Origin: Haliotis cracherodii
Lineage: Eukaryota
Assembly: GCF_022045235.1 (NCBI RefSeq)
Contig: NW_027266271.1
Location: forward strand, 26,970,001 to 27,034,000
Length of the DNA: 64,000 nucleotides
Direction: 5' to 3'
Position numbers and translations under genes: made by a program
In this document: positions 7,461 through 49,136 of the stretch, piece after piece
Layout: the number at the start of each line of letters is the position of its first letter
How positions within the stretch are numbered: the first letter of the stretch is position 1
The notes under the pieces: model-generated
The model's database searches: none
Told to the model about the DNA's origin: nothing
The model's input: the letters and a program-made list of their open reading frames with translations, nothing else

Positions 7461-7474
7461 AATGATTTGTGTGT

Positions 7475-14500: not shown

Positions 14501-14618
14501 ATGTTTGGAAATGCGAACACCGCCGCCAACGCTCCATAGTTCTTTTTCGTCTGCGTTTTCCTAAGTATCGTCTGCTTCATTTGAGACGAAGACGCGGAGG
14601 GTAGCGGATGATGCGATC

Positions 14619-14871
14619 ATGTCTCAAACTGTAACAGTTTCAATTTTACTATTAACCTGTTTGGGCTTTGTTTTGCAAGCACTGGCAGTGGACAGTGACA
14701 AATGTGTGCAAAGCTTTCTCAACGACGCCGGCGACCTTAACCTTGAGCGTTTCCAAGGTTACTGGTACGCCAGGTACTCTTACCTCCCGTACCGTCCAGG
14801 GTTCAGAGCCATTGATACTCAGTCCATCTATGTGTACATGCCAGGATCCAGGCGGTGGAACATAGCAGCGG
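14619..14871 (+). CDS. Secreted lipocalin (ApoD-like), copy 2, exon 1
   Basis: Hydrophobic signal peptide, DLNLERFQGYWY (SCR1 GxW), phase-1 donor G|GTGAGT that joins in frame to 17658. Confidence 0.9.
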
Positions 14872-16476
14872 GTGAGTAGGCTTGACGCAGTAGTATTCAA
14901 AACTGGATACTTACACTGACAGATCCATCACACGACATCTGTGGAGGTGACACTGTTTTCCTGAGAAGTAGCATGGGGTTTAATGTTCAAATCCAACAAA
15001 AAAGTTTCTGTTTTAAACTTATTTCTCTTATAAAACATTTTCATTAGTTTTCAGTTTAAGCATTTTGTTATTTTCTCACGAGTTGATTTCAAGATGGTCA
15101 TCAAGGTAATCATCTAAATTGATAAATAGTAGATGTTAATAATTATGAAGAATAATCTGGTATAACAAATACATTATCATCCTCTTGTCTTGATGACATA
15201 TCAAATATCAAAAGACACGTGTGGGATCGACTGTATACCAACCCTCTGGGCAACACGTTTTGCTTATAATCAATAAGGATTTGGGTTAAAAGACGCTTTT
15301 GGCAGTATTTCAGTCATATGAAGGGATGCACGCTTATTGTTTGGGGAAAAAACCAAAGTGGCGCAGATGGCGAAGGTCGACCGCTTTGCTTAACTCAACG
15401 AACACGAGTGTTGTATGCTGACGTGTATGCAGCTATCGATATGTACACTTGAGTTTTAAATGAGCTTGGATGTTATCAAATAAGAAAAGTATGTTCTTTT
15501 ACAAATATTGCTTTTGTACAAGATCAAAACATGATGCATGATCCCTGTTCTATTCTGTATATACATACTAAAGATGAAAGGTAAATAACAAAGCTGAATA
15601 AGACCTTTTCCGATGGTACACGTCGTCGTTTGAACCTCATGGTGGTGATCACAATGCCAACTGCACCTTGGCTGCATTGAACGGTGACGTGTGATGAAGT
15701 GAAGTGGGGCTTAACGTCGCACTCATATCGAGACGAGGGTCCACGGGTGTGTTGCTGCTTGTAGTAGTGCTGTTTCTGTAGTGTTAACCAACCATGCCCA
15801 GCTTAACATTAATACCCAACCCAGACACATTATACTGACTCCGAGCTGACCACTCCTTTCTTTCCCTTTAATATCAAGTACCTTCTGTTAATGTCGTTTA
15901 GTATCAGGCGGCCAGGGGGTCGAACCACCGATCTTCCGGGCTTAAATGATTTGTGTTTGTTTGTTTGTTTGTTGTTTAACACCACACTCTACATGACAAC
16001 GGTCTGAAAATAATCGAGTCTAAACCAGACAATCCAGTGATTGACCTCGATTCACGCAATTGGGATACGATGACATGCATCAACCAAGTCAGTGATCCTG
16101 ACCACCCGATCCCGTTAGTCGCCTCTCACGACAAGCATATTCGCCTTTTACGTATAGAAACAAATACGATTTGTAACTGGTAGGATTAGAAAAATGTTCA
16201 CCTTTGAAAAAATGGATGATTTAGAGACGATAGTAGAGACGATAGTGTAACATGTACCGTTCCGGATCGGGTGGTCGGGCATGGTTGATGCATGTCATCT
16301 CAACCTAATTGCGTAAATCATTACTCATGATGTCAATCACTGGATTGCCTGGTCCAACGTCATATATTTACAGGCCGTGACATAGCTGGGAGATGGCTCT
16401 GTGCAGAGTCAAACATCAGACAAACAATTAGTATGCCTTTAATAGTTAATACTCAACAAGGAAAACATTATTATAT

Positions 16477-17278
16477 GTATTCATCATGGACATATGGGAT
16501 ATCGTATGCTTTAAAAAAGCAATACATTCATCATGGACATATGGGATACCGTATGCTTTAAAATAGCAATACATTCATCATGGACATATGGGATATTGTA
16601 TGCTTTAAAATAGCAATACATTCATCGTGGAAATATGGGATATCGTATACTTTAATATAGCAATACATTCATCGTGGACATATGGGATATCATATACTTT
16701 AAAACAGCAATTCATTCATCGTGGACATATGGGATATCGTATACTGTAATATAGTAATACATTCATCATGGACATATGGGATTTCGTATGCTTTAAAATA
16801 GTAATACATTCATCATGGACATATGGGATATCGTATGCTTTGATATGGCAATTCATTCATCATGGACATATGGGATTTCGTATGCTTTAAAACAGCAATA
16901 CATTCATCATGGACATATGGGATATCGTATGCTTTAATATAGCAATACATTCATCATGGACATATGGGATATCGTATGCTTTAAAATAGAAATACATTCA
17001 TCATGGACATATGGGATATCGTATGCTTTAATATAGCAATACATTCAAAATGGACATATGGGAAATCATAAGCTTTAAAACAGCAATACATTCATCATGG
17101 ACATATGGGATATCGTATGCTTTAATATAGCAATACATTCATCATGGACATATGGGATATCGTATACTTTAATATAGCAATACATTCATCGTGGACATGG
17201 GATATCGTATGCTTTAAAATAGCAATACATTCATCATGGACATATGGGATATCGTATGCTTTAAAATAGCAATACATA
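16477..17278. repeat. 47-bp intronic minisatellite, ~17 units
   Basis: Same unit as 7935-8562. Confidence 0.95.
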
Positions 17279-17371
17279 GCATTCAATTTTGCACAATGCA
17301 TGTCAGGTCGATGTTCCGATCAACATACTGACTTTCCTGAAGAGAACACACTGAACGACTGCGTTACCTGT

Positions 17372-17491
17372 GGAGCCGCCTTGTGGTTGAACCGTTCGCT
17401 CGTCACGCCTAAGACCCGTGTGAAGCTCATTTCTGGTGTCCCCGCCGAGTCATTGCTGGAATATTGCTAAAAGCGGCGTAAACCTCACTCA
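17372..17491 (+). mobile_element. Degenerate SINE family A (counterpart at 48990-49117)
   Basis: GTTCGCTCGTCACGCC...CATTTCTGGTGTCCCC...AAAGCGGCGTAAACCTCACTC. Confidence 0.75.
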
Positions 17492-17657
17492 TAATCACCG
17501 TAACCTTGATCACATAGTTGTTAGATTGGGAAAACATTAGAACGCGAGTGAACCTTTAAAGGATCTGTGTCGAAAACATCGGATGTGGAAACTAAAATAT
17601 AAATTGTGAAAGAACTTCACATGTACTGAATGTCAGTATTTGATTTCCGTTTCCCAG

Positions 17658-18046
17658 GTTTGAGTATCATTGATGGACTGTGTTACCGACGCGTTGTCAA
17701 CGTCACTGTCGACAGCCCAGGCACCCGGCTGTTCAAGGACTTTACCTATTTCCACCACGTCGTTGCCACAGACTGCGACAATTACGCTGTGGCCCTTTTC
17801 TGCTGGGGGGTCAACCTCGCCGGCAAATGTGAGAACGGAGATATTCAAACCATCGTCCTCACCCGTTCCCCTCAAGACCTTAGGAAGACTAACGTCTGGG
17901 GGAAGGTCACCGCCGACGTCAAAGACTGCGCAGACCCATCACAGTTAACAGATGTTCTCCAAGAACACATCTGCGCATGTCGGGATTCCGATAATATCAC
18001 TCTGGGGGTGGGCAGCACGTGCCCTGACAGAGTGCCAAATGTTTAA
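17658..18046 (+). CDS. Secreted lipocalin, copy 2, exon 2 (spliced protein ~213 aa)
   Basis: Acceptor TTTCCCAG|GT completes a Gly codon. VVATDCDNYA (SCR2 variant), FCW...C, IVLTR (SCR3), stop TAA at 18046. Confidence 0.9.
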
Positions 18047-19593: not shown

Positions 19594-20948
19594 GTTCGTT
19601 CGTTCGTTCTTTCGGGGATTTAACGTGCGCTTTCCGCATGTAATAAATTACATTTAGCGTATCTCGCACACGGGGAAGTACTTATACTAAATAGGAAAAA
19701 AAAGCGTAATGAATAAATAAGAAGTGCGACCCCCAAAAAATGTAAATTAAGTAAACCTAAAAATTTAATCTAGGGGGTTGGGTTTGGCTGGGTGGGGTGG
19801 GGGTTGTAAATGAAAAATAATAATGTGAAAAGGTGGGCTTGGGGGGGACCGGGGGGGGGGGGGGGGGGGGGCGGGGGTGGGTGTGTGGTCAAGCGTGGAA
19901 GGGAACGGCGTTGGCTGGAGAGCTGGTGTGGAGAAGGAAGTTACTGCTTCATCCCAGCCAGGGGCCTCCTGGCTAGGTCGAGCTCTCCTAGAGGAAGAGC
20001 TCGGAACAGTGCGGTGGTGAGGCGGGCGGCGGCGTTGGTGATGAAGAGCGGGCTGACTGGGAGATCACAGTCAACCAGGAACTCCGAGAGATCCTGGTAG
20101 CTGTGGATCTCGTGCTCAACCTTTCTTCACCACAGTACTGCACCAGCACCAAGGGTGGGCGTGGGCGGTTGCTTGGGTAAATATTGCCGCTCTCATTCTG
20201 GTAGCAGGGGTTAGGGTGGACCTTGTGCTGCTCCAGGATGAGGTCTGCCTCCTGTACAAGGTGGGCACGGACATCTACCTCAACATCTTGTACCGGAACC
20301 GGGTCGGTTTGGACTTGGCTGGTGTTGAGGGAGGGGCCTGGTGTTATGGCGGTCTGCGTTTCCGTGGTCTTGCAGGTTGGAGGTGTTGGGAGGGGGTGGG
20401 GGGTGGGGGGGGGGGGGGGGGGGGGAGGGGGGGGGGGAGAGTCAGGGGAGAAGACACTTTTCTTCTTTCTCTTTTTCCTCCCCTGGCCAGTCCCTACCGG
20501 CGTGCGAAAGGGCTCCTCCCCTCTTGATTCGAGAGGAGCGAGTTCCAGTGCAGCTGTCGGGGACGGAGGGGTGGTGGGAAGGCTCTCCTGGATCTCCATG
20601 GGGGCGATTGGTGGAGACTTCTTCACTGTAGGCGGCCTGGCCTTCTGTACCGGGCGTGGTGCAGCAGGGGTAGGGACCGGGGTCCTCATCTCCTTAGGCT
20701 TGGTGTTGGTCGGAGCCTTGACCAGAGGCCTTTTCCTTTGGCCTAGGTCAAAGGAGATGGAGAGGGTGGATGAGTTGGACTTGTACGAAGTCCGGAGGGA
20801 GAAGTCCCCAACCCTGTAAGCCAGCAAGGGCTCCAGGATGGCAACTAGCTCCCTAGGTAGCGATAGAGCGATATCTCTCATGGTAGAGCGTGGGTTGCGA
20901 GCGAGGAAGGACACGTCTGCACGGGGCGAGTGTCCAAGCCGAGATGTG
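19594..20948 (-). mobile_element. Non-autonomous single-ORF retroposon (no RT) with (GAAC)n tail
   Basis: 7-bp TSD TCTTGAC (19587-19593 / 20949-20955), 3' end CGTTAAATCCCCGAAA(GAAC)4, GC-rich body in an AT-rich context. Confidence 0.7.
19988..20881 (-). CDS. Pro-rich ORF of the retroposon (ORF1-like, unknown function); likely frameshifted near 20125
   Basis: ATG at 20881: MRDIALSLPRELVAILEPLL..., basic NLS-like RKKRKKK, poly-Pro. An alternative frame after ~20125 reads KVEHEIHSYQDLSEFLVDCDLPVSPLFITNAAARLTTALF. Confidence 0.55.
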   Translation of the reverse strand: MRDIALSLPRELVAILEPLLAYRVGDFSLRTSYKSNSSTLSISFDLGQRKRPLVKAPTNTKPKEMRTPVPTPAAPRPVQKARPPTVKKSPPIAPMEIQESLPTTPPSPTAALELAPLESRGEEPFRTPVGTGQGRKKRKKKSVFSPDSPPPPPPPPPPPTPHPLPTPPTCKTTETQTAITPGPSLNTSQVQTDPVPVQDVEVDVRAHLVQEADLILEQHKVHPNPCYQNESGNIYPSNRPRPPLVLVQYCGEERLSTRSTATRISRSSWLTVISQSARSSSPTPPPASPPHCSELFL

Positions 20949-21616
20949 TCTTGACTGTGTGTTTTCTTGGATGAGAAAGTTTCTCACCGACCTTAGCGTG
21001 GAGGTGCGTGATGTCCTGGGCAGGAAATCAAAGTGTTTTGACTGCTATTCTTTCATTAATTAACGAGTTAGGCATCCCTAATTAACGTGTACTAATTCAT
21101 GTTAAACCAACACAGGATGTTTACTGGAAGTGGATATTCGCTAATGTCATAGGGCTGACACGACACGTGTTAGTAACTGTCCTAGCACTTCTAAAGTTAC
21201 TGAACATTCTTTACACCTAAAGACTAGTATTATATCTACCTATATGCCACTTTAGTGTCTCATATTGCGGTAGTTAAACAAAACACGGTGCTCAAAGTGA
21301 AGCCCTTTTCCCTCTACATTATCAACATAGGCTCTATCAAAGGTGTTTGAATTGTGTTGGGTCCGACTTGGCCCGGGCTGTCAAAATTAACTTTAAACAC
21401 ATAGATGTATCAAGAAATGTGTTTACTTCTATAGATTGTTGTTGTTGCATAAGGTGTTTAAAGGGTCGCCTTCTGCCTAGGCAATTTCGGCTGACATGTC
21501 CCTCTTTGGGACTCCTGTGTGTGAGTAGGGTACACATATCTATTGTGAGTTTGGTGTTCACATAATTTCTGTTTTTGCATTGATATGATTTCTATTTTCT
21601 AACATTGATATGATTT

Positions 21617-23235
21617 CTTTCTATCCTTGACTGCTCTGTTTATATACGTTCGAGTAGCTGTCCATCTCTCTCTCTGAAATAGAGTAAGTTTGGCCTTCGC
21701 TATTGCATCTCTTGGCTTTAGGAGATCTATGACAGATAGTGGATCTGACTGCAATTCTTGTTTTAATCAAGCCAGGGCTGGGGCATGTTCTTGACATTCT
21801 AGTAACACGTGATCAATGGTTTCAGCCTGATTGCAAGCTGAACAAACCTTGTCATAGTGCTTTTTGTGACCGAGTCGAGGCGTGAGATAGCAACTTCAAT
21901 TTTCCTTTCTTTTGAGTATGAGTTTGGCTTTTGTTGGACCTTGGGTTGAATTTTGTATAGCCATCTACCGATCTTACTTGCGTCCCATTGGGCTTGCCAT
22001 CTTTCTGCTATGGAGGCTTTGATTTTGCTTTTTATCTCTAGTTTACTAAAGGGAATAGGCTGTATATCCGCTTTGTCTAGAGCTAGCTTCGCCAGTGAGT
22101 CTACTTTTTTCATTTCCATGAATATCTATGTGAGAGGGGATCCAAAACAGCTCCACCTGTTGCCCTTGGTCCGATAGTTTTGTATATTCGTATAGAATAT
22201 TGTTGACTGTGTTTGGCCTGGAGTTTCTGCCACTGATGGCCTGAAGTGCACTTAGCGAGTCTGATAGGACGACTGCCTTTGCTTCCGGAAGTTCCGGTAT
22301 GAGTTTGTGTGCATGATGAATTGCCTCCAATTCAGCCGTGAATACTGACTGACCATCAGGCAAGCGAACTGAATGTGCTTGGGGTTTGGAGCTGTGGATA
22401 TGGATCCCGTAACCAGCACTGTTGTTGATAGGATTCTTGGATCCATCAGTGTATATATGGGCCCAGCTCTCCCAGGTAGTTTGAATTTTAGTGATAGCTA
22501 CTGATCGTAGTAGGGTTGGGTTTTCTTTTTTAGTGACTTCTGATGTTAAAGCAGTGTCAACTTTGGGAGTTTTTGAAGTCCACGGAGGGTGTAACCCTTT
22601 GTAGTGACTTTCTGGAGGCTGAATGTCATCACAATTGTGACTTCGAATGAGTTCACGTACTAATATCCCAGATGGCTTTAGTGAGGGATTGTTTCGAGCT
22701 AGGGCTTAATCTCGAGCGTTTTTGTCTTGCCATATCTTTTTAACCAAAGGGTTTGATGTTCTTCCCCAGAACGATGATATTGCCTGCTCTCTTCTTAGTT
22801 TCAATGGGAGTTCTCCCGTTTCTACTTGTAGTGCTTCTAGTGAGGTGCCTGTTGCGCTTGTGGCCAGCATTAGGGCTTTGTATTGTATTCTGTCTAGGCG
22901 CCTCAAGACAGTATTTGATGCTGAATGAAAAGCCTCACAACCATAGTCAATTTTTTATCTGATAAGAGATTTGTAGAGGTCCAGCTGAGTGTCCCTCGAT
23001 GTGCCCCAAGATGTGCCTGAAATAGCCCGTAATACGTTCAGGTCTTTTTGACATCTGTTTTCCACATATTCTATATGTTTGCGCCAAGTGAGGCGTTGAT
23101 CAAGGATCGCCCCAAGAACTATTGCAGATTTTTCGAATTTGATAGGTTTGCCTTTTATGGAGGTATCATAGCATCTTTCCCCCGGCGTTTGAATAGAACT
23201 CAACATTTTTTCACTTGAAAGGGTGAATCCCCATT
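21617..23235 (-). mobile_element. 5'-truncated, frameshifted I-group (I/Nimb-like) LINE: RT C-terminus + RNase H
   Basis: LGAILDQRLTWRKHI...SGTSWG; SLEALQVETGELPL; SVFTAELEAI; SDSLSALQAI; WIPSHIDIHGNE; WQAQWD. Confidence 0.9.
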
Positions 23236-25941: not shown

Positions 25942-27161
25942 GTCCACCGACATAGGGACGCAACCCACGACAAACACTTTACCCAATTATGTCGCCTCTT
26001 ACGACAAGCCATGGGGTGCCGAGGACACATTCTACCCCGGGCCCCAGGGAAGTCCAGGAACTCATCACATTTGGGTATCTAAATATATCTAAATATATCT
26101 GAGCAGAATTATTTATTATCGTTAATATCGTCATTACATATTTATAATCGTTAAAATCATACTTCAATCTGTTTCAGTTTAAACTTGTACTAACTTGTGT
26201 CTTAAGTGTACAATATACAGCTAACAAGCTCAATGACAGGTATTAGGGATGTCATTTGATTGTTACATCACGGTAACCGAAACGTCACAATGATCAGCAA
26301 AGCTGCAATCTCAATGTAGCGATGTGACCCGTGAAGATCCGGGGTTTAATAGGTCTTCAACGACCCATTCTTGCGGTAAAAGGCATTTTCCCGAGGCAAG
26401 AGAGTCAACTGACTATAAAAGTCCAGTTTCCACCCCATTCGTGACCAACTCGTGTTATTCCGGGACAAGCCGAATAGCGACTCGTGCCCCTCTCATGGCC
26501 ATTTCTGCGACCGGGTTCCGTCTTGGCGCAAACGGGCACACCTAAAACAGTTGTCAACTCGTTGCGTAATATTTCCCCATATATGACATATATTTCAAAT
26601 GCAATTTAAAGCACATCGGAATGTGTGGAAGTATACGGTATGATTGAACACATTTCACTATGTCTTGGGTATATTTTTAGATGCAAGACATATGTAAAGT
26701 AAAAAAAATATTGCTGTGGGATTCTTTGATGAAGAACGTGAAGCCATACGCGGATTCTGATTAGTTTGTAGTATTTTCACACATAACATTCATCGATAGG
26801 GGGACGAGTCTTCTTGAAGGTTACAGAAAGGGGCGAGTGGTGACGAATGTTTCCACCCTTCCTGAACAAGGCTGGTATTATGCAGTTAGATTTTGGCTGG
26901 ACTAACGAGTCTATGCATAGTCCAATCAAAATCGCCCAATGAAATCGAAATCCGGTTCGGAAACTGAAATGCAGATTTCTATTGATTGCAGGGTTTACAA
27001 AACATGTACACCGCCAACTCGTTGTCAACAGATATTTTCCAAATCTTTTCATGTTTTTAATCAAGGTGCTCAAGTGATTTGATGAACTTCGCGATGTAAG
27101 ACCCGTTGTATCACAATATAGACATTGATTTTTTATCAGATCGTCTTGACTGTAAGCCGCC

Positions 27162-27829
27162 AGTAGTTGTGTGCAGTAGTTTGGGGCCGATCCTGGCTTC
27201 TGATTGGTCGAGAGGATCTGTGACGTCACTTCCGGTTTCGGTGCGCAGGGCATGATGGGAGGTGCGTGTGCATCCAAGATGACGGCACATCCGTTTCCGG
27301 TGGCTTGCGCAGCTCCAAGAGGACGTCACATCCGTTTCCGGGAAGGAGGGAAAACCCGGAGAGGCGGTCGTAAAAGGTGAACGGATCAAAGGTTGAAAGA
27401 AGCGCGTCAAAAATCTTCTTTTTTTTTGTTGTTCTAAAAATAGACGTGTCGTCGGCGGCGGCGGAAGGGAAGGGAGGAGGAGGAAGGAGGGAGGAGGAGG
27501 AGGGAGGGAGGAGGGATTCAGGGAGGGAGGAAGGCGGGAGGAGAGTCGAGTTCTTTGTTTTGTTTTGTTTTGGTGTGTGTGTGGCGATGGCATGTGGAGA
27601 TGATAGTTCACTGAGACGAGCTTATCAAAGTTATCAAACACAGTCGACGACTCTGCCACTTTGTTGCTAGGTTGACGTCATATCGGCGAAGAATCTTGCA
27701 ACAACATGTCACAAATCATGTCATCGGGTATGGTGATGTGTTTGTCAACTTTGAGGTGTAAGGTTTCGTTCCACAAGGCGATCGTGTATTGTAGCCCACG
27801 ATGACAGTCGTTTGTCTAAGTTAAAAGTC
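27162..27829 (+). repeat. Maverick left terminal inverted repeat (668 bp)
   Basis: Reverse complement of 32190-33044 apart from small indels and the SINE insertion. Confidence 0.93.
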
Positions 27830-29133
27830 ACGCGATTATGCTACGAAGCCCATGAAGGTGAAACCATCAAGTACATCTCCATCAACCCCCTGTGGACACG
27901 TTGTTTGAACTGAAAGGACTGATCCAATGTCGTGTCCTACCTCCGAAACGACTCTACCATCCACTACTGCCTTACAGATCGGGTGACAAACTGCTCTGTC
28001 CTTTGTGCCGCACGTGTGCCGATACCCGGTCAGACTCCCCCTGCCAGCACATGGACGAAGAGAGGTCATGGGTGGGTACGTACGCCACCATAGAACTTCA
28101 GGAAGCCGTGAAGAAGTATGACTACCAGGTGCTTCAGATCTACGACGTTTGGCATTTTGACACCTTTGCACAGCATGACCCCGATACCCAGCAAGTGGGA
28201 CTCTTTGACACTTACATCGATCGGCATTTCAAGGAGAAGCTCGAAGCCAGCGGATACCCCGAGGGATGTACGGATCACGACGCTTACATCCAGGAAATCT
28301 ACGACAAAGAAGGCATTGTGTTGGACAAGGATCGCATCGAAAAAAATCCAGGACGTCCCACGATTGCCAAGATGCAACTGAATTCGCTCTGGGGCAAGTT
28401 TGGACAACGGCTTGACTACAGTCAGAACATCTATATGAACGATCCTGTACAGTACTTTCCCTTGTGGAGGGATGAACGCAATACCATCGAGGATGTCACC
28501 GTTGTCAACGAACACATGGTGGAAGTGACCTATACCCAGAAGAAAGAATACCAAACCCCTCATTCTCATTTCAACGTCGCCATCGCTGCTTGGGTCACCG
28601 CCCAAGCACGTCTCAAGCTGTACGAGACCTTTGCCCTGGTGGGTCGCAGGGCCTTGTACTTTGACACGGACAGCGTCATTTACATTCATCGACCACACGA
28701 CGTGAATCCAGAGCTGGGCCATTCGTTGGGCGAATTTACAGATGAACTGGACGGAAACACCATCAAGACGTTTGTGTCGGGAGGCCCCAAAAACTATGGC
28801 TACGAGTTAATGAACCCCAGACCCGATGGAACGCGCACGACCTGCAAAGTGCGAGGGTTCACTTTGAATTACCGAAACCAACAACATCTCAACTTTGACA
28901 CCATGAAAGGACTGATACTGGGACAACAGCCTGGGAAAGAGGGGGAGGAAATCAGTTTGGATTACCCTCATCAGATCATTCGAAAAGACCCTCGGCACGT
29001 AGATGCTCTTGTGACCCGACCCTCCCGAAAAGACTATCGTACCGTGTACGACAAGCGACGTCTCGTCTACGACGAAACCACAGGGCTGCCTGTAGACACG
29101 CTCCCCTTTGGGTACAGAGACGACTTTCTATAA
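27830..29133 (+). pseudogene. Protein-primed family B DNA polymerase (pPolB), C-terminal polymerase portion
   Basis: GLIQCRVLPP..LYHPLLP, LCRTC, motif B KMQLNSLWGKFGQ, motif C YFDTDS, GGPKNY, KVRGFTLN, YDKR, TLPFGY. The N-terminal/exonuclease part and motif A (DxxSLYP) are absent. Confidence 0.93.
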
Positions 29134-29199
29134 AATGATATACCATTGGGGTTTCATCAACGGATCGAAACTGAATCGACATGAAAAAAAACGGCTCGA

Positions 29200-29440
29200 C
29201 ATTGGACCAATCAGAAGCTTGGGTTTTTGACCCATCAGAGGCCGCGCTCGGACCAGTGTGGGCTCTGATGGGTCGAACTGAGGTTGTGCTTTCTCTCACG
29301 CTACAAGCCTAACCCTATGGAAAAAAAACACTAAGGACGTACCACACTGGTGGGTAGCGTGTGGGACAGAAACCAGCCAATCAGAAGGTCGGATTTTCCA
29401 CCAATCAGAAAGCAGAGTGTCAGTGTCTTTAAATACGACC
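29200..29440 (+). promoter_or_regulatory. Putative CCAAT/TATA promoter of the Maverick cargo gene
   Basis: Three CCAATCAGAA boxes (29207, 29377, 29401) and TTTAAATA at ~29428, about 60 nt before ATG 29493 (CATCATG context). Confidence 0.5.
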
Positions 29441-29492
29441 AACGTTCCCTGACCATCACTTTTCACTGAACGGTCCAAGCAACAACATCATC

Positions 29493-30957
29493 ATGTTCCG
29501 ACTACTACTACCGTATGAGAACAATGGCCACTACCGCATCATCATCAAACAGAAGAAGAAGAAGGAGAAGGGGGACAAGGACGAAGACGTTTTTAATAGC
29601 GAGCATTTCCGTCGTGCCATGGCGGACATCCTGGGGGTACAGCTAGTTCTACATTGGGAGATGATGAGAACAAGTCCCTTGTACAAAGCTTCCCATGACT
29701 GCATGCATGAGAAGTGAAAGAGTGTTGTGGACACATTTCTGCCTCCGGAGTATGGCATCTGCATCCCCAGCATGGAATTCTACGTGGAAAAGTCAACCCC
29801 AACACCTGAAGCAGCAGCACTCACAGCATCCATACTCAAAGCAGCCAAAAAAGCAGCAGCACCACACGTCGCAGCACTTACCGCAGTGGTAGCGGAGGGA
29901 ACGTTAAAAGAAACAGACGTACTCACCTCAGCACTCATTGCAGCGTCAGCAGCGGCAGAAGCAGCACCCATACTAACAACAACACCCTCAGAAGCAGTGA
30001 AAGCAGCACAACAACTCGACTCAGCACTATGGACAGCGATACTAGCATCAGCCGCAGCAACACCTGCAGCCATAGAAGCAGCAGCAGTAGCACTCGTTGA
30101 AATAGTGACCGCACATGCACCCATGCTGCAGCAGTACTCATCGCAGACAACACCATCAACAACACCTATAGCAGCAGCAGAAGCAGCCACCACACAGGAA
30201 GAAGAAGATGCAGCTGCAGACGCAGCAACAACACCCTCACTAAAAGTATTCATCAATGCGCTACAGATGGCGCAATGCGCGGCAGGTGTGAGGGCATCGA
30301 CGGGGACACCTCGAGAAGCAGCAGCAACAAGAAAATTCGCCTCAGCACTATCCTGGGCGGCAGCAACAGCCACAGCCGCCACACCTACAGCAGTAGAAGC
30401 AGCAACATCTGCACTCGTCGCCGTAGTAACAGGAGTAACTTCAGAGCAGTCATCATCACCACCACCTTCACCACCATCACCGATGGACACCTCAGATGCT
30501 GCAGCATCCACACCAAAACCAGTGGCAGTCACCACAGCACCCTCATCAACAGCACCCACACAAAAACCAGTGGCAGCAGCAATGGTAGCAGCAGTGGCAC
30601 CAACAGTGGCAGACACCACCCCCCACAGCCATAGAAGCACCAGTAGCAACACCCTCACCAACAGAACTCTTTGATGCACTTCACGCAGCAGCAGAAGCAA
30701 CCGCAGCAGCAACACCACCCTCACCAGCAGCAGCAGCACCAGAACTCATCTCAGCACTATACAGAGCGGCAGTAGCAGCCGCAGCAGCAACACCTTCACC
30801 AACAGAAGCACCAGCCACAGCAGCACTCGTTGCAACATTGAGCAGGTACCTGTGTGATGACGATGACAAAGGTTGTCATCCACTTTTTCGCATTATTAGC
30901 ATTATTTCACTTTGTTTGAAGGTATCTAAGTTGTTGTTCATTATTAAACAGGGATAA
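29493..30957 (+). pseudogene. Ala/Thr/Pro-rich Maverick cargo ORF (~487 aa reconstructed; one in-frame TGA at 29715, +1 frameshift in the C-run 30619-30624)
   Basis: ORFs 29493-29717 and 29727-30674 share one frame. Removing one C continues the same Ala-rich repeat style to TAA 30957. Confidence 0.6.
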
Positions 30958-31259
30958 ATTGAACTGACTCTTTGTGTCTTGTGCCGAACCAAGGGTAGAG
31001 GTTGAGTTGAGATGTCGTCTACGTTGTCTGTCTGTTTGTGCGTCTGTCATGTCAGTGCACACCAAAGGGATGAAATAAAATATTAAAAAATAGATAAAAG
31101 AAAAAGGCCATGCTTGAAAGATCAGCTGGCTGGTAAGACATGATGGAGTCCACATGGTGTTCAGACTAATTGACACCCACCCTGCTTGCTTTGCCAACAC
31201 AAAAAACAACAATCCAAAAGAACCCACATCCTCCCCCTCGTCCTCTTGAAGGCACACGC

Positions 31260-31644
31260 CTACGCGTGACACCACCATGGTACGTCTCAAAATAATAAAA
31301 TAAATATATATAAATAGAGACGCGTGAAACACCACGTGTGTCTGGAGACACGAGTCAAACACCACGTATGTCTATCGATCTCTCTCTCTCTCTCTCTCCT
31401 TATAATATACAAAATAGGATCAATAATCCCGTGGATCAACGTGTGTTTGAAGACACACACGCATGACATCACGACTGCATGGCAACATGGAGTACATTAC
31501 GTTTTGCATGACAACACACGACGTACATGACGTGTGCATGGAGACAAGAATGACAGTACGCCTGTCGACCTACACAAGTACCGACTCCTCGGCATCATTC
31601 ATGATAATAATCATCCTATGGATCAACGTCAACGTCTGTTTGAA

Positions 31645-31698
<54 letters not shown>

Positions 31699-31842
31699 TG
31701 ACACTATGTTTGCATGGCAACACACAAAGTACATGACGTTCACATCGCGACATGAAGTACATCTCGTGTACAAACGTCACGAAAGTGTATCGATCTTTCT
31801 CAATCCATCTAAATACTAAATAAATGTGTGTAGTCACACACG

Positions 31843-31888
<46 letters not shown>

Positions 31889-32110
31889 ACCACGTTTTGC
31901 CTGGCAACACGCGTGAAACACTACGGGTGCCTGGCAACACGAATGACAGTACACTTGCCAACCTACACGAGCGCCAGCACCTCGGTATCATGAATAAATA
32001 AATGATAATAATCATCCTATGGATCAACGTCAACGTCTGTTTGTTGTCACGCGTGGCACCACGTTTGCATGGGGGTGACATGAAGTACATCACGTAGGCA
32101 TATACCTACA
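31260..32110. repeat. Degenerate subterminal repeats with (CA)n and (GA)n tracts inside the Maverick
   Basis: GGATCAACGT...TGTTTG recurs at ~31433, 31620 and 32021; (CA)n 31645-31695, (GA)n 31854-31884. Confidence 0.8.
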
Positions 32111-32189
32111 TCACGTTCATGTCTGTGCCTGTCGATTCACCGTTAGAATTCAGCCAACACCTTTAGCACCTTTAAATTCGCCACTCACC

Positions 32190-33044
32190 GACTTTTAACT
32201 TAGACAAACGACTGTCATCGTTGGCTACAATACACGATCGCCTTGTGGAACGAAACCTTACACCTCAAAGTTGACAAACACATCACCATACCCGATGACA
32301 TGATTTGTGACATGTTGGTGCAAGATCCTTCGCCGATATGACGTCAACCTAGCAACCAAGTGGCAGAGTCGTCGACTGTGTTTGATAACTTTGATAAGCT
32401 CGTCTCAGTGAACTATCATCTCCACATGCCATCGCCACACACCAAAACAAAACAAAACAAAGAACTCGACTCTCCTCCCGCCTTCCTCCCTCCCTGAATC
32501 CCTCCTCCCTCCCTCCTCCTCCTCCTCCTCCTCCTCCTCCCTTCCCAGGGGCGGTCGGGTAGCCTAGTGGTTAAAGCGTTCGCTCGTCACGCCGAAGACC
32601 CGGGTTCGATTCCCGACATGGGTACAATCTTTGAAGCCGATTTCTGGTGTCCCCCGCCGTGATATTGCTGGAATATTGCTAAAAGCGGCGTGAAACCATA
32701 CTCACTCACTCACTCACTCCTCCCTTCCCTTCCGCCGCCGTCTATTTTTAGAACAAAAAAAAAAAAAAGATTTTTGACACGCTTATTTCAACCTTTGATC
32801 CGTTCACCTTTTACGACCGCCTCTCCGGGTTTTCCCTCCTCCCCGGAAACGGATGTGACGTCCTCTTGAAGCTGCGCACGCCACCAGAAACGGATGTGCC
32901 GCCATCTTGGATGCACACGCACCTCCCATCATGCCCTGCGCGCATGCGCAGTCACGTGACCAAACCGAAACCGGAAGTGACGTCACAAACCCTCTCGACC
33001 AATCAGAAGCCAGGATCGGTCCCAAACTACTGCACACAACTACT
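32190..33044 (-). repeat. Maverick right terminal inverted repeat (interrupted by a SINE)
   Basis: Reverse complement of 27162-27829. Confidence 0.93.
32547..32716 (+). mobile_element. SINE family A inserted in the right TIR only
   Basis: TSD CTCCTCCCTTCCC (32534-32546 / 32717-32729). Absent from the left TIR. Confidence 0.92.
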
Positions 33045-33894
33045 GCCGCCATTTTGTGTGAAGCAAAAGCAAGTGATACGAGAGGTGGAATCTAAATGGT
33101 CCATAGGAGAGGCATAGAGGGACATAACTCCTAATAGTCACTGGTGGCGCTACGATAGAGCCCAGGAATTCCAGCCTAGTTCGGCAAGGGTGGAAACTGG
33201 GATTTTAACGTCAGTTAGCTCTGTTGCCTCGGGAAGATAGTAAAAGGCGACTATGCTTGTCGGAAGAGGCAACCAACTGCATCGGATGGTCAGGCTCGCT
33301 GACTTGGTTGAAACACGACATCGATCCAAATTGGGTGGATCGATGCTGATGATATCAATCACTGGATTGTCTGGTCCAGACTCGATTATATACAGACCTC
33401 CGTCATATGGCTGGAATATTGCTGAGTGCGGCGTAAAACAACCAACCAACCAACCAATGTAGCGAGGTCTCTGAATGAATGAGATCAAGCGTTATCTCGT
33501 GTAGAAGTTGTAGGTCTTATTTATAGGTACTGCAGTCGGTGCTGAAAAAAGTACACCGACATTGGACATTCATACACTGAAGCAGAACAACGACACTGAG
33601 AACGAAATATTTCAGTGTTGAACTGATTTATTACTACAGTAAACAAATATGGAAAATTACAATTCTTTATCCATTTTGCAAACCGGAAAAAAGGTCGTTT
33701 TCAGGAGGTCCAACCATGTCCTTTGAATACAAAGATTGGTTTGCACTTTCGATGGCTGAAATATTAAAATAATAATTATAAAATATTACGGATGTACATG
33801 TGAAAATTAAACGCAAAAACGCAACGCGGTATTAATCCATACTTATATTATATATACTGAGACTTTCACCCTTTTGTACATGGTATTGTAACTT

Positions 33895-39548: not shown

Positions 39549-42500
39549 CTCATCAGTTGATATACGATGGAGGCTTGTTTATCATGTCTAATGACGTAAC
39601 ATGACTATCTTCGTATGCCTTGTGTCATAACGTTTTCAAATCCGTGGACACGGGACAATAAGTCTTTTAGAGTCATGATTGCAAAGAGTTGAAAATAGTA
39701 CTTGAATAAAATTAATAAAGTAAATAGTCTCAACAACGCTACAAGTTCAGTGGGGCAAAATCGTATTCGTCTCCGAAAAACACTCAATGCAAAGTTTCGT
39801 GTTTGTCTTTTGGAAGACAGTAGGAAGATGCATGTTTTGATATACTTATATATGTTCAACAATAGTACAAGTACCCCAATAAATAAGATTTCTAGCAAAA
39901 CTTACACCATAATGTTACTGGAAAATACGTGGTAGCATTTTGGAACAAGCATAAATACAATTATGGTGGCACATCTATAATTACAGTTGTTACGACACAG
40001 GTACAGGCTGAACATAGCTTATCACTTCATTGCTTGGTGAATTAAACATTCCCCTAAACTTGTGACGCTACCTCTTATGCTATTATGTAATACTGTAGTT
40101 GTATACTGGTGAACCCTGCACCGAATAAAGTATTCATTTATTCAGTAGGCACAACATAGGTATAGTTTCAGTTGTCACAGAAAAAGACATAGTGACAGTT
40201 TTTTTACGACAAACGCTGTGAAGCGTACACCACAAAACCAAGCTACTGCAATGAAATACACTACCTATCGGCTGTCCAAGCAGTGTAATGCGAAGGTATG
40301 AAGGTGACATGTCGGATCGTCGGATAGCTGCCCTTGCTTCCTTGATCTGCTGTCTTGTATGCTGGGAGGAGGAAGGACAAGGATAATACTTGTGATACTT
40401 CAGGTCAAGCTCAAGTTCAGATTCAAGTAAACAGTTTTACAGGACGAAACATGAGCACAAAACACAATAGTTGTAGGATTATATGAACTTGGGTAATATT
40501 GCAACTAGTTAAAATGACAATCAGAAGATTCTGCAATGTTCCCCTTGAAGGGTGCTCATGGGCTCTGGTATGGATATTTATGAACGGAACGATGTTTAGC
40601 ATCTTTATATCGTCCCAAGGCGAGCTATGCGAAGGTATAAAGGCGACATGTCTGATCGTAAATCAGCTGTCTGGTATGCGGGGAGGAGAAACAGGTAACG
40701 ATAAAATGTGTATTACTTCAGTTCAGATTCAAGTTATCAGTTTCGATGTGGATATAGTTTTACAGAAAGAAATATCTGTACATATCATGGTAGTTGTAGG
40801 ATCTTTGAAATGAAATACAGTAATGTTGAATATGAAATATAAGATACTTAGGCGAATAGTCGCAAAAAAACCAACGAAAATCGATGAGTGGTTCATTTCA
40901 TGATAAAATATTGTTCTTTCATGACGTCATTTCTGGAGATTTGAACACGCTCGCAACTTGATGACGTCTAAATTGGACGACGTTATAGTTTTAGAGGGAA
41001 GTGCCTAGTGAGTTGTTCCCCATAGATGTAGCTGGGCTAAGCAGATATACGCTATGGTCGAAACGATCGCATCCAAAAGTGAGCGAGATACGACAATCGC
41101 TATTGGGAGAAAAGGTGCAGATAATGACGTGAAAATTGTGAGAGTACAAAAACCCCTGTACATAAAATCGACATGTCCGCATTGCCGAGGTCGGATTGTA
41201 ATCAGAGAGTCACGTAAGAAAAAAACGACTCGTGGACGTTGTTCATCGGACACCAAAACACAGTGTTTTACTGTACGATAAACAACTCCCACTCGTCGTT
41301 TATTCTGTAATTAAAATGACACTCGGCAGATTCTGCCATGTTCCCCTTGAAATTCGCTCATTGTCTCTCATATTAATATCATTAATGAGCACGGTTTCAA
41401 CCTCTATATATAAGTAGTCCCTCGGATGTGAAAGGAATATAGATTAAACCCTCAATTAATTCTGAAAATTCTCTCAACAAGGTACTTCTTTAAACAAAGT
41501 AAATACTATTTACTGTGCAGGGGGATTTCACTCATCCACATCTCATGCTCACATCAATGAAGTCAATGCAAACATAAAAATACAGATAACAAACATACCT
41601 CAGCCACCGTCAGTGCCACACATTCATCCTTATTCCAAATTGTGAAGATAACCGTCACCAAAATATACAGCCTATACATTTCCAATCGTGACCTCAAAGA
41701 TGCTGCAGGCGAAATACTAGTAGAGTAGGACAAATATTGATGCAATGCATATCTAACATATTGACCAACAATGCCATAGTATTCGCCTTTGTTATATGCT
41801 TGCGCACAGCCGGTAACTAATCATGAAACACACCAAGTGGCCCTTTTGCAACAGCTCAGTGAACTCACGCTATAATGATACGATACGAATTGTTCTCCTG
41901 TAAGTTGAAGTTTGTTTGGGATTCTGCTGCGTCACAGGAATGCTGAATGTTTGCGTGAGATTGTGCACTGCTATCTTCCGTCAGTCAATAACACAAGATT
42001 GTCACCCTTTTTGAAAAAAGAAAACCATAAGTAGGTGGGAAGAGTAGGGCAGAATCCACGGGCAGTCCATCACCATAGTCACATGTAGCGTATACCAGGG
42101 CTAAGTGGGCCAGTTGGGCGCAATCAGGACCGCTTCTCACTTTGGCTCATGCACAACAGTACCTGTTTGTCGAGCCCTGACCTTATTTTGTATCCACAAG
42201 ATCATTCCTCACTGCAGAGGTGACACATGTTTTGGCTCATAAGTTGCCTTTTGCTAATTTCAAGGCCGAGATTTAAGCATTGATAAATTTCTGTAGAATA
42301 ATGGTCCAAATGTCTCCCTTTGAAAACTGCTAACGAGCATGCCAACAACATGTACGACTTCCTGAACGGTGGCTTTGGTTTTAGTCTGCAGCTCTGAGCA
42401 GGCATTATGAACAGCTAATGCCCTCCTCTCTCAGTACGTAGAACTGTCATGTCAGTGAATTCAGACTCAATCCCAGATATTCAAAATCTTGAGATGGAAT

Positions 42501-45500
42501 ACATTTGACTATCAGAGTGGATAATGAACCCAAGCTCTTGCAACTGTGAAGTTGTCACAGATACATTGCCGGAGCATTCCTTAGTAAAGCAGTAGGGAAC
42601 TACTGTGCAACCTCTATTGTACTGCTGAAGCTTGTAAATCCATACTGTGTCCATACTGGATGTTTTAATTCTTACTGGATGTTAAACTCTTAAATATTTA
42701 AAATGAGCCTGTAAGAGTTATCCCTCTGTTTCCTTACAAATAGTGGGGATACACATTCTCCCTCACACAGAACAGCCTCGACTGTTTCCTCTTTGTCAAG
42801 ATGTTTCAGTGTCTATGGCCCCTTCCTCACTTGCAAGGGTGCGGTGGGGTAGCCTTGAGGTTAAAGTGTTCGCTCGTCATGCCGAAGGCCCTGGTTCGAT
42901 TCCCATTGATACAATGTGCGAAGCCCATTTCTGGTGTCCCCCCGCCGTGATATTGCTGGAATATTGCTGAAAACCATACTCACTCACTCACTCACTCACT
43001 CACTCACTCACTCCTCGCCCGCAGAAACATTAATGTCTCTAGGTACAGATCAAACCAAATCAGACTCTTGCCTTAAGCCTATATGACAACCAGATGCTGT
43101 ATCTAATTCTGTGGCAATCCGATGTGATAGCCTGCCAGCTATAAGTGACATCTCTAGTTCTGCCTGCATATAAATCCGAATGAGGGAGATCGTTTGAAAC
43201 CCTAAAACCACCAGTAATAGAAAACTAAGTCTGCTAACGAATTCCCAAAAAGCTTTCCTAGCTTTCTAGCCCTGTTGCTCGAAGTCGTAGCTTTCCCCGA
43301 TTCCGCCATATTTGAATTGCGTGGGCCATGTCCACTTAGTCCTAGAATCGCGTGCGGAACCTCTTTGTTTCTCATTCCTGCCATCCTTACGGCTGTCACC
43401 GGCCGACGTGTCCCTAATGTTATAAGCATGCAGTAAGTGATCACAACAATCCGTAGGAAAACAAAGATAACGGCTATCAATATCCCGCATTAAGCCAGTG
43501 TCACTGTGAATAAAGCCAGTGCTCACCACCTTGTGCTCTAATAAAGTTAACTTCTGTCAGTGTGGAAGTTCAACTGACTGACCATTGCGCACTGACGGAA
43601 GATAGCACTTCTCTAAAAAAAACAGAAGCATTGTGACGTAGCAGAGTTGGCGAAGTTCCGCACAAAAGTGTCGAAGGTGTGACGCCAAATTCTTCTTTAG
43701 GAAGTGTTTCAAATTTATTGGATATCTCAAGTTGTGTCACCCATTCTAAACGGAAACAAAGATACCGTTTAACATATAGGCAAATATTAGTTTTAAATCT
43801 GGCTGTTGATTAGGTATTAATAGGGATGTATATTACAAGGCTATCATATCTGATCTCAAAAGTTAGGTATTGTCTATGGTTATACATTGTAATTATGTTT
43901 GAGTATTCTAAAAAAAGAAGCTTATATGATGGGGTGATTTTCGGATGAAAAATAATATAATTGTATTTCCTTGATAAAAGTTTGATTAGATTTATATTTG
44001 TACTAATTCCCTTATGTTGAAATATTCTGAATCTCTGGTGGTGTGTAGGGTTGATTTGCATCGGCCATCCAGGAACATAGAGTTGAGGCCTGCCTCGCCT
44101 ATTGTTTCGAAACGGCCCAAGATGGCGTCACGTCCGTTTCCTCAAGAAGTAGTTTGTTTTGCATATTCTTGAGGCTGAGGGGGAGGACTCATATATTTTG
44201 GAGAAGATTATTGATTCGCGAGATAATATAATAAAATTTAAACGTAGATCTACGTTGTAGGCTATTTGATCAGCTGGTTAAAGACAGGCCTCAATATATA
44301 AACAAAACTCAGGTTATCATGGTAATCAGAGGTTTTCTTTTTGTCCAACCTGCAAGGCGTTTATATTTTAATTTGCTGTAGTCGCCCTATCCAAGTTTAA
44401 TTTCTCAACATCAATTATTGTTGTTTCTTCCTTTATTGGCATTGTTGGAGGAGGGAGGAGTTGTTTTTTTGTGGTTGGTAGGCAAAGCAATGATGAAAGC
44501 GTTCTTTTGGGAGAGTGGGGTGGCCCTGGAAAGGGCCGTTGGAAACAAACTGGACAAGGCTTGTCTCTGTTTTACATTACTTTCCTTGATCTCGATACTA
44601 GATAATAATACGGTCCACTCCAACAGTCGGGTACGTCAGTTCCGGTGTATCGAGACGACATGGTTGATCTCTCATTAAGTGCTAGGACTGTGACGGTGTG
44701 CTCTGCTTCGCTCTTTTTTTTTTTATAGAATCGGCACTGAAACCCTGCTACCTGATTGGTCGAAAACGTAGCGCGCTGATTGGTCCGTTCCGGCGCCTGA
44801 TCTGAGCCTCGGTTTTTCCAACCGGACAGACCCTTGTGATGGGTCAGTCTTACGGGGATGTACAGTCAGTCTTAGAGGGGTGTACTGTGACTCTAAAGGA
44901 GTGTACAGTCAGTCTTAATGGGTGTACAGTCAGTCTTTAGAGGTGTACAGTCAGCCTTACATGGGTGTACAGTCAGCCTTACAGGGATGTACAGTCAGTC
45001 TTATAGGGGTGTACAGTCACTCTAAAGGGGTGTACAGACAGTCTTAAGGGTGTACAGTCAGTCTTACAAGATGTACAGTCAGTCTTATAGGGGTATTCAG
45101 GAATCCATCACGTCAGCCATGTTGATGGTCAAACCGCGTCTTTCTGTCTGTGGCCGTTGCCTTGTTCATTCCATCTTCCACAAGTTCAATCGGGTATCCA
45201 CGGGATTGTAGATATGATTTCAGTTCTGCAAGTCGTATGTTCCTTGTAGACATATTTGACAAAATCATGCGGATGGAATGCTTCTTTTTGTATGACTCGG
45301 GTGACGAGATGAAAGATGTAGATACTGTTTAGTATATGTAGGCTTAAAAGTATAGATCTGTCTCTAGATCACGTCCACATAGTTTAATATGTTATAAAGC
45401 TTGCATCTGGTTCCAGTGGCTATACTAGTGTTTGGCTTGCTTGGGAAAAGGTGACGTTGTCGGATAGGTGGTGTTTGTCGAAGGATGTTGGTCAAGAGTT

Positions 45501-46705
45501 GGCAGCTAATTTTGTTGGAAGATTTCAAGCAGTTTGTGCGTTCTGAGATTAAGACTTATTTGGATGAACAGAAGGTGGGTCAGTAACAAATATCTGCAAC
45601 CTTGACAGATAATTCCTCGGTTACTCACAGGAGTAACTTTAGGAAGGATCAGCTAGGGTAATTGTACAGTTAAGACTTATTTGGGTAATTCAGGTCAGAA
45701 TAGGTCAGCTACTTCTGTTCAGGCGTGTTCGATTACTATCAATTCAGGTAGTTCGTTCCCTAGGAAGTCAGATACCTTAGTTGGTTTGAAACAGGATTCA
45801 GGTTTGTCGTCAGGTGTTGTATGTAAATATTGACACAAGGCAGGTCATCTGTTTTCAACGTGTCATATACTCAAAGCCAAATGATGATCACAAACCACTC
45901 CCCATGCTTTTGTCCCAGTGTAATCTTATGTCATCAACATTAAGGATGAGTATGCGAGTGTCTCCTGCTGTTAGGGAGTAATTAACCTTTATTTCAAAAG
46001 GTCTGGCATTACTTCAACTGGATAAATCCACATTATGGCCAATTACTTTTCTGAGGGACACAGGGGCACTCTATTCGTGACTTTGGAGGGCGTCCTCTAG
46101 TTTGGGTAGTGGTTTCAATAGAGGGGATTGGAGGAGTAACTGGTGTGTTAGATGTTTGTGTCAATTACTACTTACGGGATGAAATAAAAGCTTAGAAGCA
46201 AGGTTTTACCACCGTAGTTTATCAGTACTGTGAATGAGTTTTCCATTCAGAAAACAACGCGATCTTAGCACTAAGATGATTGTAACGCCCATACCTTGAC
46301 ATAGACTTACCACAGTCGTAGCGCTAAGGTTGTTTTGAACAACGGCACCCAGGTCTCTTATTACCGCTGTGCCTCATGTTCTGTTGGAAGCTTGTTCAAA
46401 GGATAAGGGTCATTGCGCTTATTATAGGGAATACGTTACTTTAGTCAACATTATTAAGACCCGAGACTGTCCTCCTTCAGTTTTGTCCTCTATACCATGT
46501 GACATTTACCTCACAGTTAACGAGAAACGTTTCCTAAAAACATGAAACGCGGTGTGATTCACAGAATGCAATTACCTTCAGCTTGAAATGTTTGGAAATG
46601 CAGACACCGCCGCCAACGCTCCATAGTTCTTTTTCGTCTGCGTTTTCCTAAGTATCGTCTGCTTCATTTGAGACGAAGACGCGGAGGGTAGCGGATGATG
46701 CGATC

Positions 46706-46958
46706 ATGTCTCAAACTGTAACAGTTTCAATTTTACTATTAACCTGTTTGGGCTTTGTTTTGCAAGCACTGGCAGTGGACAGTGACAAATGTGTGCAAAG
46801 CTTTCTCAACGACGCCGGCGACCTTAACCCTGAGCGTTTCCAAGGTTACTGGTACGCCAGGTACTCTTACCTCCCGTACCGTCCAGGGTTCAGAGCCATT
46901 GATACTCAGTCCATCTATGTGTACATGCCAGGATCCAGGCGGTGGAACATAGCAGCGG
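46706..46958 (+). CDS. Secreted lipocalin (ApoD-like), copy 3, exon 1
   Basis: Signal peptide, FQGYWY, donor G|GTGAGT. Confidence 0.92.
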
Positions 46959-48898: not shown

Positions 48899-49136
48899 AG
48901 CATTCAATTTTGCACAATGCATGTCAGGTCGATGTTCTGATCAACATACTGACTTTCCTGAGGAGAACACACTGAACGCGAACACACTGAGCGTTCGCTC
49001 GTCACGCCCAAGACCCGGGTTCGATTACCCACATTGGGTACAATGTGTGAAGCTCATTTCTGGTGTCCCCGCCGAGATATTGCTGGAATATTGCTAAAGC
49101 GGCGTAAACCTCACTCATCATCACCGTAACCTTGAT

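Follow-up and report, generated by a model that had tools for sequence, protein, structure and literature searches.

The Maverick/Polinton element at positions 27162–33044 of the window (the whole 64,000-nucleotide stretch of Haliotis cracherodii DNA analyzed here) is best explained, with a probability of about 0.65, as a single ordinary copy that was deleted internally and decayed in place, and not as a spreading mini-parasite. A sequence-only reading had offered two origins, an in-situ deletion or a non-autonomous element mobilized in trans by a helper. The evidence leans to the first, because (i) the two terminal inverted repeat (TIR) arms carry arm-specific lesions; (ii) the changes in the remnant of the polymerase PolB match the divergence of the arms; (iii) the letter that creates a stop in the accessory gene occurs in no aligned contig; and (iv) contigs cover the accessory gene at low depth.

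Boundaries and insertion site

The element spans 5,883 bp, begins with AGTAGT, ends with ACTACT, and is flanked on both sides by GCCGCC, a perfect 6-bp target-site duplication; these termini and the duplication, reported in the first reading, were all re-found. The window contains exactly two occurrences of an 18-nt terminal motif, compared with 0.08 expected from shuffles, and a 22-nt terminal motif matched 0 stretches in viral contigs and 0 in metagenome contigs. The assignment to Mavericks/Polintons holds, with TIRs in the range of 100–1,500 bp that carry (AGT)2//(ACT)2 ends, a 6-bp duplication, and a homologue (a fragment only) of the protein-primed PolB. The parts of the element and its surroundings are as follows.

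26385–33239, no strand: host element carrying the Maverick, a very high-copy repeat with inverted ends and a 9-bp duplication
27156–27161, no strand: left target-site duplication GCCGCC (sequence)
27162–27829, plus strand: left TIR arm, 668 bp, starting AGTAGT and ending abruptly at the deletion junction (arm comparison)
27830–27876, plus strand: PolB island of 47 bp between two breakpoints, from the part directly preceding motif A, in a different frame from the long open reading frame (ORF) (tblastn with family PolB)
27877–29133, plus strand: 3′ portion of the gene for protein-primed PolB, with motifs B and C in about 418 codons (Pfam, family PolB comparison)
29134–29492, plus strand: intergenic stretch with three CCAATC boxes, putatively promoter-like (sequence)
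29493–30957, plus strand: broken Ala/Thr-rich accessory gene, ATG at 29493, 3′ limit approximate (ORFs, H. rufescens relative)
30958–32189, no strand: right subterminal non-coding region with microsatellites and an internal repeat (sequence)
32190–33044, minus strand: right TIR arm, 855 bp including a SINE, ending ACTACT (arm comparison)
32548–32719, plus strand: SINE-like repeat within the right arm (12-bp duplication around it)
33045–33050, no strand: right target-site duplication GCCGCC (sequence)

The host element has inverted ends of ~51 bp (84%) and a 9-bp duplication, GTAAAAGGC, and is probably a Mutator-like MITE; it itself splits a third repeat. The region around the element is very rich in repeats. 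In the sequencing-run contigs, the depth of the left flank was about 1e5–1e6, and the flanking repeat made up everything among the joints and loose ends listed; a further 744 joints and 2,671 loose ends lay beyond that listing. That repeat richness, together with the finding that no run covers most of the stretch (at most 0.39 of the sampled words in any of 15 runs), would suit a misassembly, or two insertions that ectopic recombination fused into a chimera. Such an origin is very improbable, since the 6-bp duplication is perfect and the sequences on either side, taken together, make up a single host element that has inverted ends and a 9-bp duplication of its own.

Remaining and missing genes

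PolB-derived sequence begins at 27830, immediately after the last position of the left arm (27829), confirming that the TIR directly abuts PolB. A second break lies at 27876/27877, 47 bp past this junction, with the loss of about 22 codons that include motif A; all of PolB upstream of the 47-bp island is also absent. The remaining PolB ORF, first described as 413 stop-free codons, is indeed stop-free and has 423 codons from stop to stop, about 418 of which are in the PolB frame. It matches Pfam PF03175 (E 3e-9) and is 84–93% identical to PolBs of a Haliotis family over the aligned parts. With motif A and the 5′ two-thirds lost at two breaks, the earlier description of a dead polymerase stands, and the element, judged from its sequence, encodes no working polymerase.

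The single unknown gene of the first reading was found, in broken form: it has an in-frame stop at 29715–29717 and a frame change near 30.6 kb, and it shares 83% identity across 354 aa with XP_046351345.2, an unbroken H. rufescens protein of 547 aa, of which the final ~210 aa find no counterpart in the window. This was the only relative in two protein searches, the first of which was limited to 8,000 scored candidates; neither a Pfam family nor a usable Atlas match was found for the accessory protein. The label "mucin-5AC-like" probably reflects composition only. As the sole relative is an abalone protein and the surrounding sequence occurs in contigs of other copies, "cargo" is probably the wrong word, and the gene is more likely a resident of the Maverick family. 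In the right subterminal region, an internal repeat of ~160 bp (31490–31642 and 31883–32043) is 76% identical between its copies.

We searched the window by tblastn with 532 ORFs from 80 distant Maverick-like loci. All 117 matches fell in the PolB stretch and no core-gene remnant matched outside it. The 42 query ORFs scanned with Pfam included 6 integrases and 5 A32-type ATPases and no confirmed capsid or protease. The reported absence of integrase and ATPase is thus borne out, and the loss of core genes is supported; for capsid and protease, no suggestive ORF or match was seen in the window, where the 4.4-kb interior leaves little room and no query was confirmed as either. In lacking integrase and packaging ATPase genes, and in its length of 5,883 bp versus about 13–25 kb, the element differs from autonomous Mavericks.

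Divergence of the arms and of PolB

Under the established model, TIR arms are expected to be identical at the time of insertion. Here, the arms align over 652 columns with 15 substitutions (2.3%) and 7 gaps (22, 1, 11, 177, 2, 2, and 4 bp), the 177-bp gap being the SINE present in the right arm only. Of the ~670-bp TIRs with intact ends described at first, the termini stand, but the arms (668 versus 855 bp) are no intact matched pair, nor are they the near-identical arms of a recently inserted, mobile mini-Maverick; their divergence argues against recent, not past, mobility. The SINE is 97% identical to a copy at 1688–1859 of the window and, judged by eye, is of tRNA origin; ARAGORN found no tRNA in it. 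Since the arms have diverged and one of them contains a SINE with its own duplication, deletions and insertions demonstrably occur here in place.

With the divergence of the arms taken as a clock (1.15% per arm), 10.2 replacements would be expected in PolB. Among the 418 codons, 10 replacements were strictly private and 13 were private or near-private (Fisher p 1.0 and 0.56, respectively), and at this clock the probability of a stop-free PolB ORF is 0.53. With 2.4 private changes per 100 residues, the element ranks with the older members of its family (2.4–8.1; 7 of 23 scored copies) and above the young ones (0–0.9; 14 of 23). The match to both arm divergence and older copies gives no indication of a long life as a mobile mini-element. 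The clock fits a deletion in place and a deletion just before insertion alike and does not separate them.

The inner arm differs at 4 of 347 positions and the outer part at 11 of 305 (Fisher p 0.06; best-split permutation p 0.17). This lower divergence, examined as possible evidence that the inner arm was copied later, is not significant; the inner arm alone (0.58%) predicts 5.1 replacements in PolB compared with the 10–13 seen (p 0.14–0.29). The arms share one letter, at 27708/32311, that is carried by at most 0–17% of contig depth, which suggests that the inner arms were homogenized. The inner arm contains a frame of 45 codons that was considered as a gene remnant marking right-end sequence. 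This reading was rejected: a comparison with 1.84 billion proteins gave 2 hits, both of them sums of weak scores to repeat proteins in which the best single stretch reached 4.4 bits, and there was no Pfam match.

These observations bear on an unlikely alternative, in which the element was dead on arrival: template switching during extrachromosomal protein-primed replication, possibly with the right end copied back onto the left, would have produced a defective genome that a helper integrase inserted once and that then decayed. The intact origins at both ends, the two breakpoints only 47 bp apart, the left arm stopping exactly at the junction, and the rare letter common to both arms are all consistent with it, and the PolB clock fits equally well. 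However, nothing positive sets this history apart from an in-place deletion. The arm end is also explained if the TIR was naturally longer than 668 bp and the deletion removed its inner part, given the range of 46–1,447 bp for intact vertebrate Maverick TIRs (PMC8097293), and the inner arm has no coding evidence that would mark right-end-specific sequence.

For the preferred reading, deletion and decay in place, we propose the following course. A larger working copy would have been inserted by the family integrase into the high-copy MITE, making the 6-bp duplication, and purifying selection on PolB would have ended at about that time. One or more large deletions, probably through double-strand-break repair with little homology, would then have brought the left arm up against the final third of PolB, left the 47-bp island, and taken out the core genes; point mutations, small deletions, and one SINE would have accumulated afterwards. 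Two breaks separated by 47 bp are also consistent with template switching by the polymerase. The element is predicted from its sequence to be immobile without a helper, and no function is proposed for it. In vertebrates, 96% of Maverick loci are degraded (PMC8097293).

The Haliotis family and known elements

The element belongs to a multi-copy Haliotis Maverick family (84–93% protein identity) represented by XP_048249879.1 and XP_048243657.1 of H. rufescens and XP_071107581.1 of H. cracherodii. Among the family gene models, a sample biased toward long proteins in which 15 of 17 cluster members were listed, 25 of 26 extend upstream past the junction position, motif A is present in 19 of 26, and none of the 26 starts at the junction. 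Both species have young, near-identical, long PolB gene models, which makes a helper plausible. The TIR–PolB junction has one match in the window, and its 26-mer has 0 in viral contigs; among possible family PolB relatives in viral contigs, 60 stretches fit a pattern and 0 were confirmed.

Contigs from 4 of the 15 sequencing runs that carry the sequence were aligned to 26300–31300, a stretch ending before the right arm. In 4 of 4 runs, no aligned contig depth carried the window's letter at the accessory-gene stop, and summed contig depth over the accessory gene was 6.5–22 times below that over PolB; this low depth suggests that copies with this structure make up no more than a minority, although the contig evidence is weak, as contigs drop rare variants and contig depth is not copy number. 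At several PolB sites, up to 7–27% of the depth in some runs did not carry the other letter, so some differences appear to be common to a subfamily. One run had contigs with 0 differences over 29156–29309 and 30547–30684, which indicates a very close copy in that run.

It is doubtful on this evidence that the element belongs to a small non-autonomous family of several copies, for which a helper Maverick would supply replication and integration in trans. The "N" in the name of the zebrafish Polinton-1N1_DR stands for non-autonomous. In favor of such a family are the intact cis elements, the young near-identical PolB copies in H. rufescens and H. cracherodii, and two precedents, namely mobile polB-less polintons inferred in insects (10.1101/2025.02.07.637071) and Polinton-1N1_DR itself (PMC9341505). 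Against it, PolB decay is not above the arm clock, the accessory stop is in no aligned contig, accessory-gene depth is low, no family gene model starts at the junction, the retained dead PolB piece and broken gene show no sign of selection, and the copy sits with the older, not the young, family members. Similarly doubtful is a copy-back defective genome, for which the polymerase would have jumped two times inside the PolB gene during free protein-primed replication and afterwards to the right end, rebuilding a left end from right-end sequence; a helper integrase would then have inserted the 5.9-kb product at several sites as a defective-interfering-like abalone family.

The likeness to degraded animal Mavericks (PMC8097293) extends to the (AGT)2//(ACT)2 ends, the 6-bp duplication, a TIR length within 46–1,447 bp, and genes eroded by stops, frameshifts, and insertions; the difference is that here both ends and the duplication survive around an interior of only 4.4 kb, in a mollusc host. 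In C. elegans genomes, pPolB and TIRs without integrase were likewise seen at 10 loci (10.1101/2024.01.15.575659). Non-autonomous polintons (the polB-lacking insect ones and Polinton-1N1_DR) are likewise TIR-bounded and without genes for autonomous movement; their mobility is inferred from several related insertions, whereas here there is one known locus with arms 2.3% diverged and nothing intact. No study of abalone Mavericks was among the matches listed in the literature search; supplements may list mollusc elements.

As a decayed copy, the element matters little, being one dated fossil in an abalone Maverick family in which very young copies also occur. A multi-copy junction, or a left arm with right-end-only sequence, would be genomic evidence for Maverick replication and integration in trans, and likewise that Mavericks replicate as free linear molecules yielding defective genomes, like adenoviruses; the gain would be modest, because insects already provide inferred cases of mobile polB-less polintons. 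Within the Haliotis family, relatives of this PolB reach 1,291 aa, of which as many as about 960 residues precede the junction position.

Ends and genomic setting

By descent, this element belongs to the Mavericks; it does not qualify as an autonomous one. Its ends, 6-bp duplication and TIR size match those of animal Mavericks (PMC8097293). The features in and around the element are as follows.

1000–8700, 9700–17350 and 41770–48980 (approximate): a segment present 3 times, 90–100% identical over the 300-nt blocks shown, at spacings of ~8.5 and 32 kb; it contains tandem arrays of 47-bp and 21/22-bp units
19988–20983 (−): 331-aa Pro/Lys-rich frame
22046–22705 (−): 219-aa frame that by eye resembles the RNase H end of a non-LTR retrotransposon
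26323–33457: four-level nest of ~270-bp host repeat, high-copy TIR element, Maverick and SINE
26385–33239: host element (inverted ends of ~51 bp; 9-bp duplication)
27162–33044: the Maverick (5,883 bp)
27162–27829 and 32190–33044: left and right arms
27862–29133: long PolB ORF
29493: start of the accessory gene
32548–32719: SINE-like repeat

The element starts with AGTAGT, ends with ACTACT and has GCCGCC on both flanks, which bears out the termini and the perfect 6-bp target-site duplication described in the sequence-only reading; the window contains two copies of its 18-nt terminal motif, where 0.08 would be expected. The ~670-bp TIR length of that reading holds for the left arm (668 bp); the right arm measures 855 bp and contains the SINE-like repeat. 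The arm-versus-arm alignment (652 columns) contains 15 substitutions and 7 gaps (22, 1, 11, 177, 2, 2 and 4 bp), the 177-bp gap being the SINE-like repeat, which is bordered by a 12-bp duplication and shares 97% identity with a copy at 1688–1859. Therefore, the ends are recognisable, yet not pristine. Substitutions number 11/305 in the outer arm halves and 4/347 in the inner halves, a difference that is not significant once the choice of split is allowed for.

Both flanks are halves of the single host element, which itself interrupts a repeat that is found uninterrupted at 50058–50325 and 52310–52573. Because of these nested flanking repeats, a chimera of two insertions is unlikely. Present at very high copy number (left-flank contig depth ~1e5–1e6), the host element has TIRs and a 9-bp duplication and is probably Mutator-like.

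Polymerase fragment and accessory gene

The long ORF matches PF03175, which supports its earlier assignment to the pPolB C-terminus, and its length is corrected from 413 stop-free codons to 423 codons stop to stop. Among longer proteins, 594 of 3,426 candidates matched; the best were Haliotis gene models, drawn from one cluster of 17 (15 listed) and another of 10. Identity to these family proteins was 84–93% over the aligned parts, which makes an abalone host likely. Comparison with the family PolBs revealed two breaks: (i) at 27829/27830, where the left arm directly adjoins PolB as first noted, up to ~960 upstream residues are gone; and (ii) at 27876/27877, ~22 codons including motif A are gone and the frame is changed, leaving a 47-bp island. 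Motifs B and C are retained; with motif A and the sequence upstream of the junction missing, the polymerase is dead, as had been proposed. In a sample biased toward long proteins, the sequence upstream of the junction position is present in 25 of 26 family gene models (the remaining one is an N-terminal piece) and motif A in 19 of 26. One contig starts matching at 27876 after 15 unmatched letters, the pattern that a copy lacking the second break would give.

The H. cracherodii PolB gene models P0005, P0102, P0138 and P0140–P0144 are nearly identical to one another, suggesting recent activity. Full-length models carry 0–1 private changes, and several models skip catalytic motifs at recurring points, which may reflect real splicing or a gene-prediction artefact.

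The accessory gene has an in-frame stop at 29715–29717, changes frame near 30.6 kb, and received no Pfam or Atlas assignment. Its sole relative in the protein searches is an unbroken 547-aa H. rufescens protein (P0146; 83% identity over 354 aa), the final ~210 residues of which have no match within the window. The last ~70 residues of P0146 form a Cys-rich tail, RING-like by eye and without a Pfam match, that is missing from the window. Contigs from other copies span the interval between PolB and the accessory gene (from a listing of 32 pieces, with 121,756 further pieces beyond it; overlaps short), and 1 listed contig, again with short overlaps, joins the 3' repeat of the accessory gene to the right subterminal region. 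Because such contigs cover the surrounding sequence, we infer a resident gene of the family instead of the cargo originally suggested.

Missing core genes

When the ORFs of 80 distant Maverick-like loci (532 in all) served as queries, the window gave 117 matches, all within the PolB stretch, and no integrase or ATPase remnant. Scanning 42 of these ORFs, from 7 of the 80 loci, identified 6 integrases and 5 A32-type ATPases and confirmed no capsid or protease, so the absence of integrase and ATPase reported from the sequence alone stands. In 7/7 distant loci scanned, PolB is followed on its 3' side by an ATPase and/or integrase gene (distant relatives share 33–46% identity). If the abalone family has this PolB-5' gene order, a second large deletion would lie in the right half, perhaps close to 30557, the point at which similarity to the H. 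rufescens relative ends.

In the metagenome contig L035, a Maverick of 17.7 kb that looks complete occupies 209–17899; its inverted repeats measure 464 bp (94%), and its genes include PolB, an ATPase, an integrase-chromodomain gene and one with a PC4 domain. Maverick-linked ORFs at L031:3849–4724 and L071:14154–15305 have a protein kinase domain and CARD plus PC4 domains, respectively.

The name Polinton-1N1_DR denotes a non-autonomous element. It occurs in PMC9341505, and general Maverick/Polinton definitions are given in PMC10748475, PMC6431247 and PMC5499653. Of the known systems, 96% of vertebrate Maverick loci are degraded (PMC8097293), C. elegans genomes contain 10 loci with pPolB and TIR and without integrase (10.1101/2024.01.15.575659), and polB-lacking insect polintons are inferred to be still mobile (10.1101/2025.02.07.637071).

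Timing and origin of the decay

On the model that the two arms are identical at insertion, 15/652 gives 1.15% per arm. From this arm clock, 10.2 replacements are expected across the 884 replacement sites of PolB, and the probability of a stop-free ORF is 0.53. Strictly private replacements number 10/418 (Fisher p 1.0 against this expectation), and private or near-private ones 13, with 4 out-of-frame positions dropped (Fisher p 0.56). Because these match the arm clock, PolB would have ceased to be under selection roughly when the element inserted; the inner arm taken alone speaks against this, with 5.1 replacements expected and 10–13 observed (p 0.14–0.29). The window copy has 2.4 private changes per 100; among 23 family copies with at least 100 scored columns (3 shorter copies dropped), 14 have 0–0.9, 2 have 1.5–1.7 and 7 have 2.4–8.1. 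In the tree, the branch of this copy measures 0.039 (median 0.012) and arises from an unresolved fork.

We favour, with a probability of about 0.65, a working copy that underwent internal deletion and neutral decay in place: the family integrase would have inserted a working Maverick, in which deletion and then neutral decay would have followed. A template-switching deletion during free replication, with a single helper-driven insertion afterwards, is rather unlikely. Template switching fits both the 47-bp spacing of the two breaks and the fact that the left arm stops at the junction, but so does the repair of a break within a natural TIR of greater length; the clock itself is equally compatible with deletion in place and deletion just before insertion. 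By contrast, the clock argues against a long-lived mini lineage, and both a small multi-copy non-autonomous family and a multi-copy copy-back defective Maverick family are unlikely.

Part of 26300–31300 was found in 15 of 18 listed runs (maximum share 0.39 of 511 words). Four runs were compared with this interval, all as contigs, which weigh little because they lose rare variants and their depth does not equal copy number; the listed joints and loose ends involve the flanking repeat only. Among 40 listed of 226 differing sites, the window's letter at the accessory stop is carried by 0% of contig depth in 4/4 runs (contigs drop rare variants), while at 7 of 13 listed PolB sites no covering run shows the window's letter above 1.5%, and at the other 6 it reaches 7–27% in at least one run. 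Contig depth, which is not copy number, is 6.5–22x lower over the accessory gene than over PolB. An assembly artefact is highly improbable. In one run, two contigs (29156–29309 and 30547–30684) are without any difference from the window; thus, a very close copy is present there, perhaps this locus itself.
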